In this document: one piece after another, positions 18,728 through 22,563 of the stretch
Layout of the letters: each line of letters begins with the position of its first letter
Numbering within the stretch: the first letter of the stretch is position 1
Sequence record: PP738785.1
DNA from: Klebsiella phage vB_KpnP_Tribble_ER49
DNA: 64,000 nucleotides
Strand: one strand, 5' to 3'
Program-made: the position numbers and the translations under genes
The notes under the pieces: model-generated
Told to the model about the DNA's origin: nothing
The model's database searches: none
The model's input: only the letters and a program-made list of their open reading frames with translations

Positions 18728-18746
18728 CATTGCCCTGTGGGCAATG
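18728..18746 (-). promoter_or_regulatory. candidate vRNAP early promoter hairpin (element a)
   Basis: 'cattgccc-TGT-gggcaatg' has an 8-bp stem and 3-nt loop with central G on the plus (template) strand; it shares flanking 'cattcatt' with two other elements. Confidence 0.45.
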
Positions 18747-18748
18747 TC

Positions 18749-19009
18749 TTAAATAAGAAAGATGGAAGCAAGGACAGCTTCATATTCGGCATATTCTGCC
18801 GGATCAGTGTTAATGAGAGCTTCGTACTCACGCAGAGTATCAACGCAGTCTTCAGTGAGTTCTTCAGCTATAATATTAAGTGCTTCAGCCTCACCTAAAT
18901 GAGCACACAGATAACTTACAGCACGCATAAATAGCTTCAGTGCTAACTCAACCATGCCACCTTCATAAGCCAGTTGGCATTGTTCCAGAGTAATATTTAC
19001 ATCGATCAT
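18749..19009 (-). CDS. small acidic protein
   Basis: 86 aa, rich in E/D/A ('EAEALNIIAEELTEDCVDTLREYEALINTDPAEYAEYEAV'). Confidence 0.4.
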   Translation of the reverse strand: MIDVNITLEQCQLAYEGGMVELALKLFMRAVSYLCAHLGEAEALNIIAEELTEDCVDTLREYEALINTDPAEYAEYEAVLASIFLI

Positions 19010-19299
19010 GAGAATGAGATCCGTTGTTCAAGGATGACAGGAACTCCAATGGCTACTTTAGCCATCAGAGATTTAATTTCACGCATATCCACTTTGATAG
19101 TGAAGTTCTTTTTATGCATACCCATTAATGTAGCTGGGAAGTCCACCACTGCAATACGTGGGAACTTCTCCAGTGCTACATTGAATTTAGTAATAGTGAT
19201 AGTGGCATTGATGCCAATGTTGAAGTCACTATAATAAGATATAGTACCTTCACCCAGCATCTTAGAATGCCAGTTAAATACTTGGTTAGAAGTAGTCAT
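19006..19299 (-). CDS. hypothetical protein
   Basis: 97-aa ORF, ATGA-coupled. Confidence 0.4.
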   Translation of the reverse strand: MTTSNQVFNWHSKMLGEGTISYYSDFNIGINATITITKFNVALEKFPRIAVVDFPATLMGMHKKNFTIKVDMREIKSLMAKVAIGVPVILEQRISFS

Positions 19300-19540
19300 T
19301 GTCCAGTCTCTCCAGACATAGATACTGACCTTTGCTTATAATAGCGTACTCAGTATCATTGAGAATTAGATAGTCTTGAGTCCCCAGATTTCTGCTACCA
19401 TCACGCATCTTGTTTAGTAGTCTTATGTCCTCTGGTTTAATACCAATGGCTAGTTTAGTTTGAATAGTTTTAGCTTCAGCTTCATCTACCCTAACCATCA
19501 TTGAGGGATGAATATCCCCAAATACAGCATAGTAGCTCAT
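19286..19540 (-). CDS. hypothetical protein
   Basis: 84-aa ORF. Confidence 0.4.
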   Translation of the reverse strand: MSYYAVFGDIHPSMMVRVDEAEAKTIQTKLAIGIKPEDIRLLNKMRDGSRNLGTQDYLILNDTEYAIISKGQYLCLERLDNDYF

Positions 19541-19666
19541 ATTACCCCCATACTGATATTAACCAGTCATACTCCTCCTGGGTTAATACAGGTTTATATT
19601 GCTCAATTACATTGAGTGCATTGTTGAAGTTCTCATTACAGAAGAATGAGATGATTGCAAAGTATT

Positions 19667-19993
19667 TCACCAGTCTATCTCCTTAAGGTAGAAGCCTTCA
19701 TCATCTTTATAAAGACGAAAGTCTTTATTACTAATAAAGACTCTTGTAGCAACAATTACCTTTTCGCCCATTTTAATACGTACTTTGGATACGTGAACCC
19801 TTGGTTCAACAATACCAATACTACGTTGCACTTTAACTTTCTTAAGTTCATTATCTGATATTGAATAGATAAATGGTTGTTTACCTACATTTTCTTCCCA
19901 AAAACGTCTATCATTTTTGGTAGAGCTACTAAGTTCTATTAACATAATTACACCTTGGGTAATTGTTGCATACTTGTAGGAGGCGAAGACCAA
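19667..19993 (-). CDS. hypothetical protein
   Basis: 108-aa ORF (start may be the internal Met). Confidence 0.35.
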   Translation of the reverse strand: MVFASYKYATITQGVIMLIELSSSTKNDRRFWEENVGKQPFIYSISDNELKKVKVQRSIGIVEPRVHVSKVRIKMGEKVIVATRVFISNKDFRLYKDDEGFYLKEIDW

Positions 19994-20286
19994 CGACCAC
20001 TGACTACACCTGTGAGTCTTTCTTTGGGTACATACTTCTTAAATTCCCACTTACAGTGTTTATTAAGGAATACTTCATACCCTTTAAACAGTTCGTCAGT
20101 ATCATTACGATCACTGGCAATGTTTCTCTGGTTCTTACGTTTAATACGTGAACCATCGATACAGTACCCATCAAGAGTACAGCCAATGGCTAAAGCCATC
20201 TTTACCTTTTTCAACCATGCATCAGTTGTACGAATATGAATACACTTCTGCATAGCTGGTGCATAGACATAGATTATTTTACTCAT
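19948..20286 (-). CDS. hypothetical protein
   Basis: 112 aa; 'MALAIGCTLDGYCIDGSRIKRKNQ' region; possibly a small nuclease fold, but this was not established. Confidence 0.35.
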   Translation of the reverse strand: MSKIIYVYAPAMQKCIHIRTTDAWLKKVKMALAIGCTLDGYCIDGSRIKRKNQRNIASDRNDTDELFKGYEVFLNKHCKWEFKKYVPKERLTGVVSGRWSSPPTSMQQLPKV

Positions 20287-20352
20287 AGTAATGTTCCCAT
20301 AGTAAATAGAGGATTAAGATAAAACCAGATATGTAAGCGAGTAATAACATAT

Positions 20353-20574
20353 TCATTTATTGTCCTGTGGACAATATACCTCCCAATCTGTATGTTTTTG
20401 AGTTAGAAAGTTTTCTACTGTATCTGTATAGGTATCCCCATTAGAGAATCTAACAAATATTTCTCCTCTTTGGTTCAGTGTTAGTAGTGTTCCACTATTC
20501 CATAGAGGTCTACGTATTACAGCCCCTAGTTTCAGCATTAATAATGCTTCTTTAGAAGTCATACAATGTACCAA
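20353..20574 (-). CDS. DUF2829-motif small protein, paralog 1 of 5
   Basis: 'MTSKEALLMLKLGAVIRRPLWNSG' fits the A-L-x-x-L-K-x-G-x-K/V-x-R-x-x-W pattern. Confidence 0.5.
   Translation of the reverse strand: MVHCMTSKEALLMLKLGAVIRRPLWNSGTLLTLNQRGEIFVRFSNGDTYTDTVENFLTQKHTDWEVYCPQDNK
20359..20375 (-). promoter_or_regulatory. candidate vRNAP early promoter hairpin (element b)
   Basis: 'attgtcc-TGT-ggacaat' preceded by 'attcattt'; overlaps the last codons of the upstream ORF. Confidence 0.4.
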
Positions 20575-20798
20575 TTGTGAGAGTCATCGAATATAATTGT
20601 GAATTTACTCACTGGAGTAAATATCCTGGAATTATTATCACTACAGTAAATATAGTCTCCTTTGATGTAGTAATAAAGATCTTGTTTCATCCAGTCAGCT
20701 CTGATTTTACATCCGATCTTCATTGCTAACAGGGCTTCCTGAGTCGTCATACAATTTCCACTCCATACCTTCGTATTCTTCGATAAACTTATTAACAT
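20559..20798 (-). CDS. DUF2829-motif small protein, paralog 2 of 5
   Basis: 'MTTQEALLAMKIGCKIRADWM'. Confidence 0.5.
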   Translation of the reverse strand: MLISLSKNTKVWSGNCMTTQEALLAMKIGCKIRADWMKQDLYYYIKGDYIYCSDNNSRIFTPVSKFTIIFDDSHNWYIV

Positions 20799-20946
20799 TA
20801 CATACTAGATTACTGAAACTTAAAGTGGTACATACATAACGAATAGAGCTATCCTGTATTTCATAATAAGCATCAAAGTCCTCCCATTTAGTGGGAACAA
20901 CCTTGCAACCTATTTTCATTGCAAGTAGTGCTTCAGCTGTTGTCAT
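20707..20946 (-). CDS. DUF2829-motif small protein, paralog 3 of 5
   Basis: 'MTTAEALLAMKIGCKVVPTKW'. Confidence 0.5.
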   Translation of the reverse strand: MTTAEALLAMKIGCKVVPTKWEDFDAYYEIQDSSIRYVCTTLSFSNLVCNVNKFIEEYEGMEWKLYDDSGSPVSNEDRM

Positions 20947-21380: not shown

Positions 21381-21415
21381 GTTAATAAACTAAGCCCTCC
21401 AGTGAGGGCTATTGT

Positions 21416-21688
21416 TTAGTAGGTATATTCAATACGTTTCCAATGCTCAAGGTTGAGCACACCACCATCTTTGATATGTTTGAGCATAGTAAGCAGTAAT
21501 GAATACAGCTTATCCTTCTCACCTTTAATCTCTGATTTAACGTGATAGAACTCTTCACCCATGATGGTTATTTCAATACGATTGACATACCACTGATGGC
21601 CTAAATGATCTTGAATCAGTCTACGAGTGATATGTGGATATGATGCTTCTTTGATAGCTTTACGGTGTAGCTCTAATTCAAGATCCAT
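21416..21688 (-). CDS. hypothetical early protein
   Basis: 90-aa ORF. Confidence 0.4.
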   Translation of the reverse strand: MDLELELHRKAIKEASYPHITRRLIQDHLGHQWYVNRIEITIMGEEFYHVKSEIKGEKDKLYSLLLTMLKHIKDGGVLNLEHWKRIEYTY

Positions 21689-21703
21689 AGTTATACCTCT
21701 GGT

Positions 21704-21994
21704 TTAATAGCAGAACCAGGCACCACATGATTTACATACGGCACCACCACCATGACCTGATCCAACATTAAGATGAATGCAATCAGCATCACCCTGCCAT
21801 AGGTCATGATTCTTTTTATATGTTTCAATAATGTCAGAGAATCCACTTACGTAGTTCTCTTTATCATCAGTAAGATCTACATACTGAAACATATCTTCAC
21901 CAATACCCTGTATCCACTCAATAGCCTGAGCTACAGTTTCAAACTCTTTATAGTTCTCGAAAGTATCAATTAACTGATAGTTGATAGTTACCAT
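21704..21994 (-). CDS. hypothetical early protein with C-terminal Cys/His knuckle
   Basis: 'CIHLNVGSGHGGGAVCKSCGAWFCY'. Confidence 0.4.
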   Translation of the reverse strand: MVTINYQLIDTFENYKEFETVAQAIEWIQGIGEDMFQYVDLTDDKENYVSGFSDIIETYKKNHDLWQGDADCIHLNVGSGHGGGAVCKSCGAWFCY

Positions 21995-22009
21995 GATTAC
22001 ACCTCTGGT

Positions 22010-22201
22010 TTAATGGGTTGGGATTACTAAAGTATTATGACCAGCAAAGCTGACTTTATTACTATCTTTGATGAGCACACAGTTATGGTTATCACCATCT
22101 TCTGTAGCTTTCTGCCATACATTACGGTCACCATATGCCCATGTCTGGGCAAACATGAACTGAGCACCATCTTCTAATTCGTCGAATTTAAGTACTTGCA
22201 T
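22010..22201 (-). CDS. hypothetical early protein
   Basis: 63-aa ORF. Confidence 0.35.
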   Translation of the reverse strand: MQVLKFDELEDGAQFMFAQTWAYGDRNVWQKATEDGDNHNCVLIKDSNKVSFAGHNTLVIPTH

Positions 22202-22204
22202 GGT

Positions 22205-22393
22205 TTAATCCTCTAAGTCAGATACGATTTCTTCAACTTGGCTTAATGTTAATTCCAGCTCACACCAGATTTCACAGGCATCCATGCCTGATTTCATCAT
22301 GGATTCTATGTAGGCTCTTAAAGCACTAGCATAGTTAGCACGGGCTTCATCATTCATGATGACCTCACACACATTTACGGTAGGCAGACACAA
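22205..22393 (-). CDS. hypothetical acidic early protein (may start at internal 'MNDEARANY')
   Basis: 62-aa ORF. Confidence 0.35.
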   Translation of the reverse strand: MCLPTVNVCEVIMNDEARANYASALRAYIESMMKSGMDACEIWCELELTLSQVEEIVSDLED

Positions 22394-22508
22394 GGAGTCC
22401 TATTAACAGGGCTATGCTGATATAACCATTAGCACCATGATAGAGTGCTGCTTGGATAACTACTGTTGCAGCGAAAACGTGCAGTGCGAAGATAAATGAC
22501 TTGGACAT
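22365..22508 (-). CDS. unlisted 47-aa hydrophobic peptide, first ORF after promoter-like element c
   Basis: minus-strand ATG at 22508: MSKSFIFALHVFAATVVIQAALYHGANGYISIALLIGLLVSAYRKCV*. Confidence 0.3.
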   Translation of the reverse strand: MSKSFIFALHVFAATVVIQAALYHGANGYISIALLIGLLVSAYRKCV

Positions 22509-22546
22509 AGTTAGTACTCCAATAGGTTAACTGAATACTTCTATAC

Positions 22547-22563
22547 ATTACCCTGTGGGTAAT
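22547..22563 (-). promoter_or_regulatory. candidate vRNAP early promoter hairpin (element c, most upstream)
   Basis: 'attaccc-TGT-gggtaat' preceded by 'tacatt'; lies at the edge of the long non-coding region. Confidence 0.45.

Follow-up and report, generated by a model that had tools for sequence, protein, structure and literature searches.

Three template-strand T-G-T hairpins as likely virion RNA polymerase early promoters of a Klebsiella schitovirus

Introduction

Promoters that fold into hairpins and are read by an RNA polymerase injected with the phage DNA are a hallmark of N4-like phages, and almost all of the sequence rules for such promoters come from N4 itself. Here, we analyze three hairpins with a T-G-T loop, designated T1, T2, and T3, in the early region of a 64,000-nucleotide stretch of DNA (the window) from Klebsiella phage vB_KpnP_Tribble_ER49 (PP738785.1). 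The window contains an open reading frame (ORF) of 3561 aa, the gene of a virion RNA polymerase (vRNAP), and shares 97% nucleotide identity over positions 18000-23000 with Klebsiella phage vB_KpP_FBKp27 (Schitoviridae), on which grounds it is assigned to a schitovirus of the genus Efbeekayvirus. Hairpin early promoters are expected in an N4-like phage, and N4-type stem-loop promoters were predicted earlier in the phage CB1 (PMC6027278; PMC9569702); the T-G-T loop departs from N4.

Results

Three T-G-T hairpins upstream of leftward genes

The early and middle genes of the window run leftward on the - strand from approximately 22.5 kb down to position 1. The + strand, which carries T1-T3, is the template for the leftward genes that flank the hairpins, in the orientation given by an original prediction made from the sequence alone (Table 1). 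T1 and T3 were found on the + strand exactly where that prediction had placed them; T2 was present on the same strand, with an 8-bp stem instead of the 7-bp stem that had been described at 20359-20375. The hairpins are located 34-68 nt upstream of leftward gene starts, in agreement with the predicted arrangement ahead of early genes: (i) T1 precedes the gene of a homolog of Drc, a single-stranded DNA (ssDNA)-binding cofactor of the phage RNA polymerase II (RNAPII), with 71 nt between the loop center and the ATG at 18666, and begins 3 nt past the stop codon of ORF 18749-19009; (ii) T2 precedes ORF 19948-20286, whose ATG is at 20286; and (iii) T3 precedes a 47-aa membrane ORF (22365-22508; ATG at 22508, GGAG ribosome-binding site) and the block of genes down to 21416. 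The gene layout of the original prediction was also correct. The two RNAPII genes were identified by their PHROGs matches, and the strong terminator that had been placed after them at 15411-15441 is real, lying just after the large-subunit gene at slightly different limits (Table 1).

A scan of the 64 kb revealed that T1-T3 are the sole + strand hairpins with a TGT loop and a stem of at least 6 bp. Not one of 200 dinucleotide shuffles produced three hairpins with the same loop and stems of at least 7 bp, and hairpins of the form C-TRT-G (a C:G closing pair around a loop with A or G at its center) with stems of at least 7 bp numbered 4 against 0.11 expected, a count reached in 0 of 100 shuffles. 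A chance origin of the TGT hairpins is ruled out by these shuffles. Two stem positions differ among T1-T3, and both differences are compensated (G:C to A:T and C:G to T:A). Folded as ssDNA, T1, T2, and T3 each form the hairpin listed in Table 1, at -8.2, -5.5, and -4.5 kcal/mol, respectively. Another TGT-loop hairpin, ACCCAAC-TGT-GTTGGGT, was found on the - strand at 5209-5225, inside ORF 4870-5475; its 7-bp stem and its flank are unrelated to those of T1-T3, it matches none of the models described below, and it is probably a chance occurrence.

Two common alternatives for such sites were rejected. T1-T3 are not intrinsic terminators: no T-run follows a hairpin on either strand, and the sites are absent from a terminator scan. 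Nor are they sigma-70 promoters, as no leftward-sense match was found at the hairpins, and matches over 14-25 kb were fewer than in shuffled sequences (21 versus 29.6). The "promoter" features annotated in FBKp27 lie away from T1-T3, save one that overlaps the T2 hairpin by 4 nt. On the - strand, a 23-codon hydrophobic ORF (MLLLAYISGFILILYLLWEHYYE) begins leftward at 20348-20350, 4 nt past the predicted T2 start and before ORF 19948-20286; it may be a chance ORF.

Table 1. Hairpins, predicted transcription starts, genes, and terminators in the window.
Feature	Position	Strand	Description
Hairpin T1	18728-18746	+	CATTGCCC-TGT-GGGCAATG; 8-bp stem; predicted vRNAP early promoter of the Drc unit
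Hairpin T2	20358-20376	+	TATTGTCC-TGT-GGACAATA; 8-bp stem; predicted vRNAP early promoter of the block 20286 to 18749
Hairpin T3	22547-22563	+	ATTACCC-TGT-GGGTAAT; 7-bp stem; promoter candidate closest to the genome end
Predicted T1 start	18724-18725	+ (template)	C-A, 13/12 nt from the loop center; +1 = C 18724; RNA 5'-GCAAAGG...
Predicted T2 start equivalent	20354-20355	+ (template)	CA, 13/12 nt from the loop center
Predicted T3 start equivalent	22542-22543	+ (template)	TA, 13/12 nt from the loop center
Drc homolog	18376-18666	-	96 aa; ssDNA-binding RNAPII cofactor; ATG at 18666, GAGG ribosome-binding site
Terminator-like hairpin right behind the Drc gene	18350-18368	-	GCCCAGC-CTCGT-GCTGGGC, then TATTTCATT
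RNAPII small subunit (N4 gp15 homolog)	16741-17763	-	phrog_2166 "N4-like RNA polymerase", E 4.9e-111; FBKp27 annotation
RNAPII large subunit (N4 gp16 homolog)	15449-16723	-	phrog_2051, E 6.9e-138
Intrinsic terminator closing the RNAPII operon	15423-15442	-	GCCTACCC-TTCG-GGGTAGGT, then TTATTTTTTT; terminator also annotated in FBKp27
Intrinsic terminator ending the T3 unit	21393-21410	-	AGCCCTC-ACTG-GAGGGCT, then TAGTTTATT; FBKp27 annotation; GGA hairpin C directly after
GGA hairpin A	14190-14204	+	GTGACC-GGA-GGTCAC; upstream of ORF 13885-14145
GGA hairpin B	14532-14548	+	GATGCCC-GGA-GGGCATC; upstream of ORF 14211-14495
GGA hairpin C	21366-21380	+	GTGTTC-GGA-GAACAC; directly after terminator 21393-21410
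vRNAP gene	41314-51999	+	3561 aa; proposed reader of the TGT hairpins

A C-TRT-G hairpin family common to Efbeekayvirus and Cbunavirus

In nine Efbeekayvirus genomes, the TGT hairpins and a second family of hairpins with a GGA loop (described below) are kept base for base, with mosaic surrounding DNA that is 85-90% identical. T1 is identical in every Efbeekayvirus relative compared, and T2 is kept in the relatives, with a 7-bp version in Halo_KS_7. The T3 of one IMG/VR relative (L022) reads ATTCTCC-TGT-GGAGAAT, in which two base pairs are swapped compensatorily. In HS106, the T1 hairpin and its leader are present as a tandem duplicate (7071-7089 and 7198-7216, 127 nt apart) upstream of Drc, an arrangement that recalls the tandem early promoters of LUZ7. 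The feature table of OY979417.1 (K17alpha62) does not fit its sequence, in that structural genes and the vRNAP are annotated over early-region DNA; the annotation appears to be offset.

More distant relatives were ranked by the RNAPII large subunit, for which tblastn gave identities of 60-64% with Cbunavirus and Erwinia phage MIF8, 48% with Acinetobacter phages, 40-42% with LUZ7 and with Litunavirus, and approximately 31% with the N4 group. A scan of IMG/VR with the same protein returned only near-identical contigs and two contigs at 42% identity, and therefore added little diversity. We scanned the template strand of five relatives with a large subunit of approximately 61% identity (CB1, SABI, Kc283, EK8, and MIF8) for hairpins. 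In CB1, SABI, EK8, and MIF8, closing pair and loop were most often combined as C-TAT-G and C-GGA-G; in Kc283, C-GGA-G was the commonest and C-TAT-G was tied second. The counts of C-TAT-G hairpins are 6 for CB1, 3 for SABI, 2 for Kc283, 4 for EK8, and 4 for MIF8; every one of the 19 is located ahead of the RNAPII genes, and the downstream sequence, of roughly equal length, contains none. The first copy of CB1 is centered 89 nt from the annotated left end, within the 647-bp terminal repeat; the corresponding distances are 96 nt for N4 P1 and 86 nt for the first LUZ7 hairpin. A hairpin orthologous to T1 is located upstream of Drc in all five phages, each time with a different stem, and the distance from loop center to Drc ATG is 71 nt in CB1 and Kc283, as in the window. 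GenBank labels three of the CB1 hairpins (861-877, 1778-1790, and 6745-6759) N4-type early promoter stem-loops, and none of the six corresponds to a hairpin sequence listed in Table S4 of the CB1 paper.

Alignment on the loop yielded a family of 22 members, for which the clade members had been chosen as perfect hairpins with a C:G closing pair. The following features were found: (i) both loop Ts are invariant in 22/22 members and the central loop base is A or G; (ii) the closing C:G pair is likewise invariant in 22/22, which is partly the result of selection, since C:G was a criterion for the clade members; (iii) the stem sequence is variable over 5-8 bp, with double changes at 7 of 8 pairs and a covariation score of 0.72, compared with 0.19 for shuffles and at most 0.15 for slid partners, a statistic that is partly circular because the members were picked as perfect hairpins; (iv) a template A lies 12 nt from the loop center in 20/22 members, and CA (13/12 nt) is found in 17/22, independent of stem length; and (v) the loop has the same orientation with respect to transcription in 22/22 members (TRT, never AYA). 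The last two features played no part in the selection of members.

A covariance model (R2) trained only on 18 T-A-T hairpins from the five other phages, with no Klebsiella sequence, was run over 128 kb with filters off. It ranked T1, T2, and T3 first to third, with 21.2, 20.6, and 16.6 bits (E 3e-4, 5e-4, and 0.012), and the next match was a terminator at 15 bits. A second model built from all 22 members (R1) found no further member above 14 bits in the window and none in the 12.6 kb of FBKp27 that lie outside it; that is to say, the motif is not scattered through late regions in random orientation, a pattern that the original prediction had named as evidence against itself. Over 26 other loci, R1 detected 2-4 copies in each Efbeekayvirus genome, without exception on the template strand, and no family member in LUZ7 or Presley. 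Five C-TRT-G hairpins that are weaker (5-7 bp) and lack the flank motif are present at other sites on one strand or the other. A 5-bp hairpin, ATGCC-TAT-GGCAT, lies between the early terminator and the GGA hairpins on the + strand of the window (14884-14896), in the 5' end of the ortholog of FBKp27 gp055. It has no CA flank and is below threshold in the family models; Halo_KS_7 has a compensatory version, ACGCC-TAT-GGCGT, at approximately 2602-2614. The specificity of the TRT model has a limit, as illustrated by a false positive in N4 (8023-8039): the terminator-like GCCCTCC-TAT-GGAGGGC, on the + (non-template) strand after gp18, is a weak match (23.5 bits).

T1-T3 share with this family the C:G pair and T-R-T loop, the CA at 13/12 nt (TA in T3), recognition by R2, confinement upstream of RNAPII, and one copy before Drc. 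Judged from these sequence features, T1-T3 are the Klebsiella form of a C-T(A/G)T-G family common to Cbunavirus and Efbeekayvirus.

Agreement with and departure from the N4 promoter rules

The N4 genome (EF056009) served as calibration. On its template strand, P1 (90-102, GTTGC-GAA-GCAAC), P2 (557-573, AAGAAGC-GGA-GCTTCTT), and P3 (4546-4562, AAGCTGC-GGA-GCAGCTT) carry CC-A(A/T)AA on the 5' side, with the +1 C 11 nt from the loop center. In biochemical terms, the N4 promoter is further defined by specific vRNAP transcription of single-stranded templates, or of supercoiled templates in the presence of single-stranded DNA-binding protein, and by a need for gyrase in vivo. The N4 vRNAP contacts -11 A/G, -10 G, -8 G, and +1 C, and the sheared -10G:-12A pair is needed for extrusion and hairpin stability (PMC4496689).

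T1-T3 conform to the N4 pattern in that (i) they are template-strand hairpins with a 3-nt loop, with stems of 8, 8, and 7 bp that are slightly longer than the 5-7 bp of the rule; (ii) the central loop base (-11) is a purine, G in T1-T3 and A in the Cbunavirus members; (iii) the closing pair is -9 C/-13 G; and (iv) they are located upstream of RNAPII and its cofactor at the presumed first-entering end, with the position of this end taken from the HS106 repeat (described below). They depart from it in that -10 and -12 are both T, in T1-T3 as in 22/22 family members; -8 is C, with G or C elsewhere in the clade; and the base 11 nt from the loop center is T, with C-A (T-A in T3) at 13/12 nt instead of a +1 C at 11 nt. 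Thus, the N4 vRNAP promoter architecture claimed in the original prediction holds for the strand, the loop length, the central purine, and the C:G pair, and fails for the sequence rules at -10G, -12A, and -8G. Its "exactly three, as in N4" proved to be a coincidence, as CB1 has six copies, HS106 has four, and some close relatives have two.

The original prediction had placed the starts approximately 11 nt from the loop center. A distance of 13 nt is likelier, because the conserved C-A lies at 13/12 nt and the early starts of LUZ7 were mapped 13-14 nt from the hairpin center (PMC9163698). Transcription would then probably start near 18724, 20354, and 22542, with a template T at the last of these. 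The left flank that had been described as shared by the three hairpins is in part the outer stem ATT and in part this conserved template CA/TA, 12-13 nt from the loop center.

The Drc homolog and the T1 leader

BLASTP comparison of the 96-aa product encoded downstream of T1 revealed 43% identity to CB1_20 (E 3e-19) and 29% identity to LUZ7 Drc (E 7e-6). The protein also matches phrog_6271 (E 6e-13), and its ortholog is labeled as the cofactor in GADU21; PHROGs and two GenBank records call it a "toxin". A PDB sequence search for the Drc fold returned no match, and the homology comes instead from the pairwise BLASTP comparisons. The annotated length of the ORF differs among records: several relatives (GADU21, pKP-BM327, and others) have 116 aa, and FBKp27 has 96 aa. 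On our reading of the sequence, the 96-aa form is the true Drc form, and the 116-aa ORF from 18726 is an upstream in-frame extension whose extra 20 codons are the promoter-proximal leader. Leaderless translation was also considered, since the "CAT" beside T1 and T2 would give an ATG at the predicted start. We rejected it: the CAT better fits the conserved C-A start motif, and the Drc start is the ATG at 18666 with its GAGG.

Just downstream of the predicted T1 start, the 12-mer GGCAGGATTGCC (18708-18719 on the + strand) forms a small hairpin, GGCA-GGAT-TGCC. The identical 12-mer lies just downstream of the first TAT hairpin of CB1 near the genome end (CB1 102-113), and each Efbeekayvirus genome has a single copy. 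In early transcripts, the 12-mer may form a conserved RNA stem-loop close to the 5' end.

C-GGA-G hairpins and the mapped promoters of LUZ7

The window contains a second hairpin family, C-GGA-G, with 3 members (A-C in Table 1) against 0.04 expected. These hairpins are intergenic, have stems of 6-7 bp, and share a 5' flank, (C/T)TC(A/G)C, 11-15 nt from the loop center. In Halo_KS_7, the stem of hairpin C is replaced wholesale (AATGCAC-GGA-GTGCATT), with the flank and loop kept; the hairpin C stem is also present in Erwinia phage MIF8. The GGA hairpins are more N4-like than the TGT hairpins, and must therefore be accounted for before the latter are assigned to the vRNAP.

C-GGA-G is conserved across Efbeekayvirus, Cbunavirus, Presley, and LUZ7. 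With a stem of at least 6 bp, it is located just after the RNAPII genes in LUZ7, Presley, one IMG/VR contig at 42% identity, and all Cbunavirus relatives. Over positions 1-64000 of LUZ7, template-strand C-GGA-G hairpins with such stems were found only at 8245 (just after RNAP2), 9529, and 35259 (where the replication genes restart), which are middle-operon starts. The early transcription start sites of LUZ7 mapped by ONT-cappable-seq number nine and lie at hairpins whose loop is 3 nt; the strongest two form a tandem ahead of Drc with 33 nt between them, and the middle promoters of LUZ7 are GC-rich hairpins with a stem of at least 6 bp and a 3-4-nt loop (PMC9163698). We paired these mapped promoters with hairpins by comparing their description in the text (a tandem with 33-nt spacing before Drc; stems that are GC-rich and at least 6 bp long) with the sequence, in which AGACC-GTA-GGTCT and CAGGC-GTA-GCCTG are spaced by 32 nt and precede Drc by 60 and 92 nt. 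Early-class loops differ by clade: G-R-A in N4; G-W-A in LUZ7, Presley, and the IMG/VR contig; T-A-T in Cbunavirus and MIF8; and T-G-T in the Klebsiella Efbeekayvirus phages. The window hairpins at 14190, 14532, and 21366 fit the LUZ7 middle-promoter class and, by this analogy, are probably middle promoters of RNAPII with Drc. T1-T3 do not fit that class, having AT-rich outer stems and preceding the RNAPII genes.

The virion RNA polymerase and the genome end

In a phmmer search with the whole vRNAP, the C-terminal 1000 aa matched the N4 vRNAP chains (E 7e-35), with the catalytic motif DGVTNGP aligned. The polymerase domain on its own had no match in the PDB by phmmer, and the whole protein matched only through its C-terminal domain and the catalytic motif. 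A three-way MAFFT alignment of the window, N4, and LUZ7 vRNAPs has approximately 20% identity and is of low confidence, and a mapping of the N4 promoter-contact residues onto the window vRNAP is tentative only. In this low-confidence alignment, R119 of N4 is matched by R, and R904, the residue in contact with -8G, is matched by K; W129 and D901 belong to insertions present in N4 alone. The pattern is weakly consistent with a vRNAP in which the contact to the central purine is kept and the reading of the stem and the loop flanks is altered.

Beyond T3, a region of approximately 500 nt (22600-23110) has no convincing ORF and contains many short repeats (TATAG motifs, and GTGTATTGTGTATGATGTGTATTGTGTATG at 23070-23100); it is followed by a bidirectional terminator at 23112-23131. 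The HS106 record begins and ends with a 360-bp direct repeat; position 1 of the record corresponds to window position 23044 and the repeat to approximately 22685-23044, and the HS106 paper is silent on how the termini were determined. Because this terminal repeat maps there, the physical genome end of the window phage is probably within 22600-23110. No T-R-T hairpin was found closer than T3 to the end placed in this way.

Discussion

The three TGT hairpins are likely to be vRNAP early promoters of this Klebsiella schitovirus. After comparison with the relatives, the reading proposed in the original prediction, namely that early genes are preceded by stem-loop promoters of the N4 vRNAP type on the template strand, is the best-supported one. 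We favor an assignment of the TGT hairpins to the vRNAP (early) and of the GGA hairpins to RNAPII with Drc (middle), because the GGA class is positionally fixed at the start of middle transcription, the early loop is clade-specific, and Drc and RNAPII are needed before RNAPII can act. The Drc-RNAPII block has only TGT hairpins directly ahead of it; T2 and T1 lie between it and the nearest GGA hairpin upstream (C, 21366). The assignment to the vRNAP is further supported by T1, which is orthologous in position to the mapped early promoters before Drc in LUZ7.

By analogy with N4, negative supercoiling of the entering DNA would extrude each 17-19-bp inverted repeat as a cruciform, the non-template arm of which would be melted by the host single-stranded DNA-binding protein. 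The vRNAP, injected with the DNA, would then bind the template hairpin on the + strand, recognize the T-G-T loop, with a purine at its center, and the C:G pair that closes it, open the AT-rich base of the stem, and start leftward RNA synthesis at the template C (T at T3). The T3 unit would comprise the first small genes and end at terminator 21393-21410, and the T2 unit would extend from 20286 down to 18749. The T1 unit would be a compact Drc unit with a 58-nt leader, the gene itself, and a leaky terminator at 18350-18368, from which read-through could continue into the RNAPII genes up to the terminator at 15423-15442. Drc and RNAPII would then use the C-GGA-G hairpins at 21366, 14532, and 14190 for middle transcription.

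Several observations weigh against this interpretation. The N4 rules at -10, -12, and -8 do not hold, and the GGA hairpins, which the original prediction had missed, have the loop and closing pair of N4 P2 and P3 and lie on the same strand as T1-T3. If the 360-bp repeat of HS106 marks the real end, T3 is located approximately 490 nt from it, compared with approximately 90 nt for the first hairpin in N4, LUZ7, and CB1. T3 is absent from three relatives (L007, L008, and L021), and the covariation score carries the circularity noted above. Moreover, we infer the polymerase that uses the hairpins, their cruciform extrusion, and the start sites from position and analogy.

The most serious rival is the reverse assignment, in which the C-GGA-G hairpins (21366, 14532, and 14190) would be the vRNAP promoters, as in N4, and the TGT hairpins would be read by RNAPII with Drc or another factor. 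The identity of the GGA loop and C:G pair to those of N4 P2 and P3 speaks for it, as does the purine-rich spacer of the GGA hairpins, which is followed by a template C; furthermore, both families carry a (T)CA motif 13-14 nt from the loop, and therefore both look like promoters of related single-subunit polymerases. However, no GGA hairpin lies upstream of the T3 genes, and in CB1 the first GGA hairpin is at 2942, with none near the end, whereas TAT copies are located at 89 and 869. The genes that are needed first, those of Drc and RNAPII, sit directly behind TGT/TAT hairpins. The placement of C-GGA-G just after the RNAPII genes in LUZ7, Presley, the IMG/VR contig, and all Cbunavirus relatives also argues against the exchange, and in LUZ7 its restriction to middle-operon starts fits the mapped middle promoters (PMC9163698), with the mapped early promoters before Drc in the position of T1. 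We regard the reverse assignment as improbable.

Two further explanations dispense with a hairpin promoter altogether, and both appear very remote. The sites could be palindromic operators (ATTNNCC-N3-GGNNAAT) bound as duplex, without extrusion, by a dimeric regulator of the phage or host, for example in early shut-off; they are indeed perfect inverted repeats in intergenic positions, with half-sites conserved within the Klebsiella phages. A dimer operator does not, however, require both arms to change at once, as the variable stem positions do within the genome, in the L022 ortholog, and across the clade. Across the clade, moreover, it is not the half-site that is conserved but only the loop, the closing pair, and the one-sided downstream CA, and the polarity of loop and flank is fixed relative to transcription in 22/22 members. 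Alternatively, the hairpins could act in RNA, as stem-loops (loop ACA) in read-through transcripts that serve as processing sites, 3'-end stabilizers, or weak terminators between early genes. That T1 starts 3 nt after the stop codon of ORF 18749-19009 would suit such a role, and the hairpin would form in the leftward RNA too, the - strand DNA having an equal folding energy. Yet no U-tract follows the hairpins on the RNA strand, the stems are too short for RNase III, T3 and the first CB1 copy (89 nt from the end) have nothing upstream to transcribe or process, and the CA conserved at a fixed downstream distance has no obvious RNA function.

If T1-T3 are confirmed as vRNAP promoters, the sheared G:A pair is not required for vRNAP promoters generally, and a second hairpin-specific polymerase-promoter pair would be available for ssDNA-templated transcription. 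The T-R-T loop in place of the N4 G-R-A loop is shared by a clade of Klebsiella, Pectobacterium, Enterobacter, Kosakonia, Erwinia, and Escherichia phages that has a separate GGA class at the middle genes. Once confirmed, the motif could be used to annotate early and middle promoters in therapeutically used Klebsiella phages, whose GenBank records now hold only sigma-70-type predictions at other positions. More generally, the Schitoviridae that use Drc may have two related single-subunit RNA polymerases that read template hairpins with diverged loop codes, RNAPII with Drc keeping an invariant C-GGA-G hairpin, with the early-promoter loop of N4, where the middle genes begin in phages from LUZ7 to Klebsiella, and the vRNAP loop drifting by clade; we consider this two-code proposal plausible and evenly poised. 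If it is true, the vRNAPs of the Klebsiella and Pectobacterium phages recognize a hairpin without a sheared G:A pair, which implies another solution for extrusion or recognition, and the hairpin promoters and ssDNA-dependent RNA polymerases form a naturally orthogonal pair.

Comparison with known systems

Compared with N4, the window shares the template-strand hairpin with a 3-nt loop, central purine, and C:G closing pair; an early region upstream of the RNAPII genes and a cofactor gene, which in N4 is gp2, no homolog of Drc; a template C-A, at a constant distance from the loop, where transcription starts in N4 and is predicted to start in the window; and, in the vRNAP alignment, an Arg at the position of R119, which contacts the central purine in N4. 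By contrast, the loop of the window is T-G-T instead of G-R-A, and hence there is no sheared G:A mini-hairpin; -8 is C instead of G; the stems are 7-8 bp with AT-rich bases instead of 5-7 bp; the conserved C-A lies at 13/12 nt from the loop center instead of 11/10; and the polymerase domain of the vRNAP is too diverged for alignment by phmmer.

The early promoters of LUZ7 resemble T1-T3 in being template-strand hairpins in which a C:G pair closes a 3-nt loop, the strongest of them directly before Drc, and the RNAPII and Drc proteins of the two phages are homologous. They differ in their G-A-A or G-T-A loops, in their stems of 4-5 bp, and in their number, with nine early transcription start sites. 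The LUZ7 middle promoters, used by RNAPII with Drc, have their counterparts in the GGA hairpins: GCGTTC-GGA-GAACGC lies just after RNAP2 in LUZ7, compared with GTGTTC-GGA-GAACAC in the window. The TGT hairpins differ from these middle promoters in that they precede the RNAPII genes, have another loop, and have stems that are not GC-rich.

The closest likeness is to the predicted promoters of Cbunavirus (CB1, CB3, CB4, and Possum), which have the same C:G closing pair, T-R-T loop, CA at 13/12 nt, location upstream of RNAPII, and copy 71 nt before Drc, with GGCAGGATTGCC shared between CB1 and T1. Cbunavirus and MIF8 have A as the central loop base, where the Klebsiella phages have G, and the stems are GC-rich and 5-8 bp in Cbunavirus, whereas those of the window are AT-rich at the base. 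CB1 has six copies, one of them 89 nt from the end, and the Cbunavirus promoters are, like those described here, predictions.

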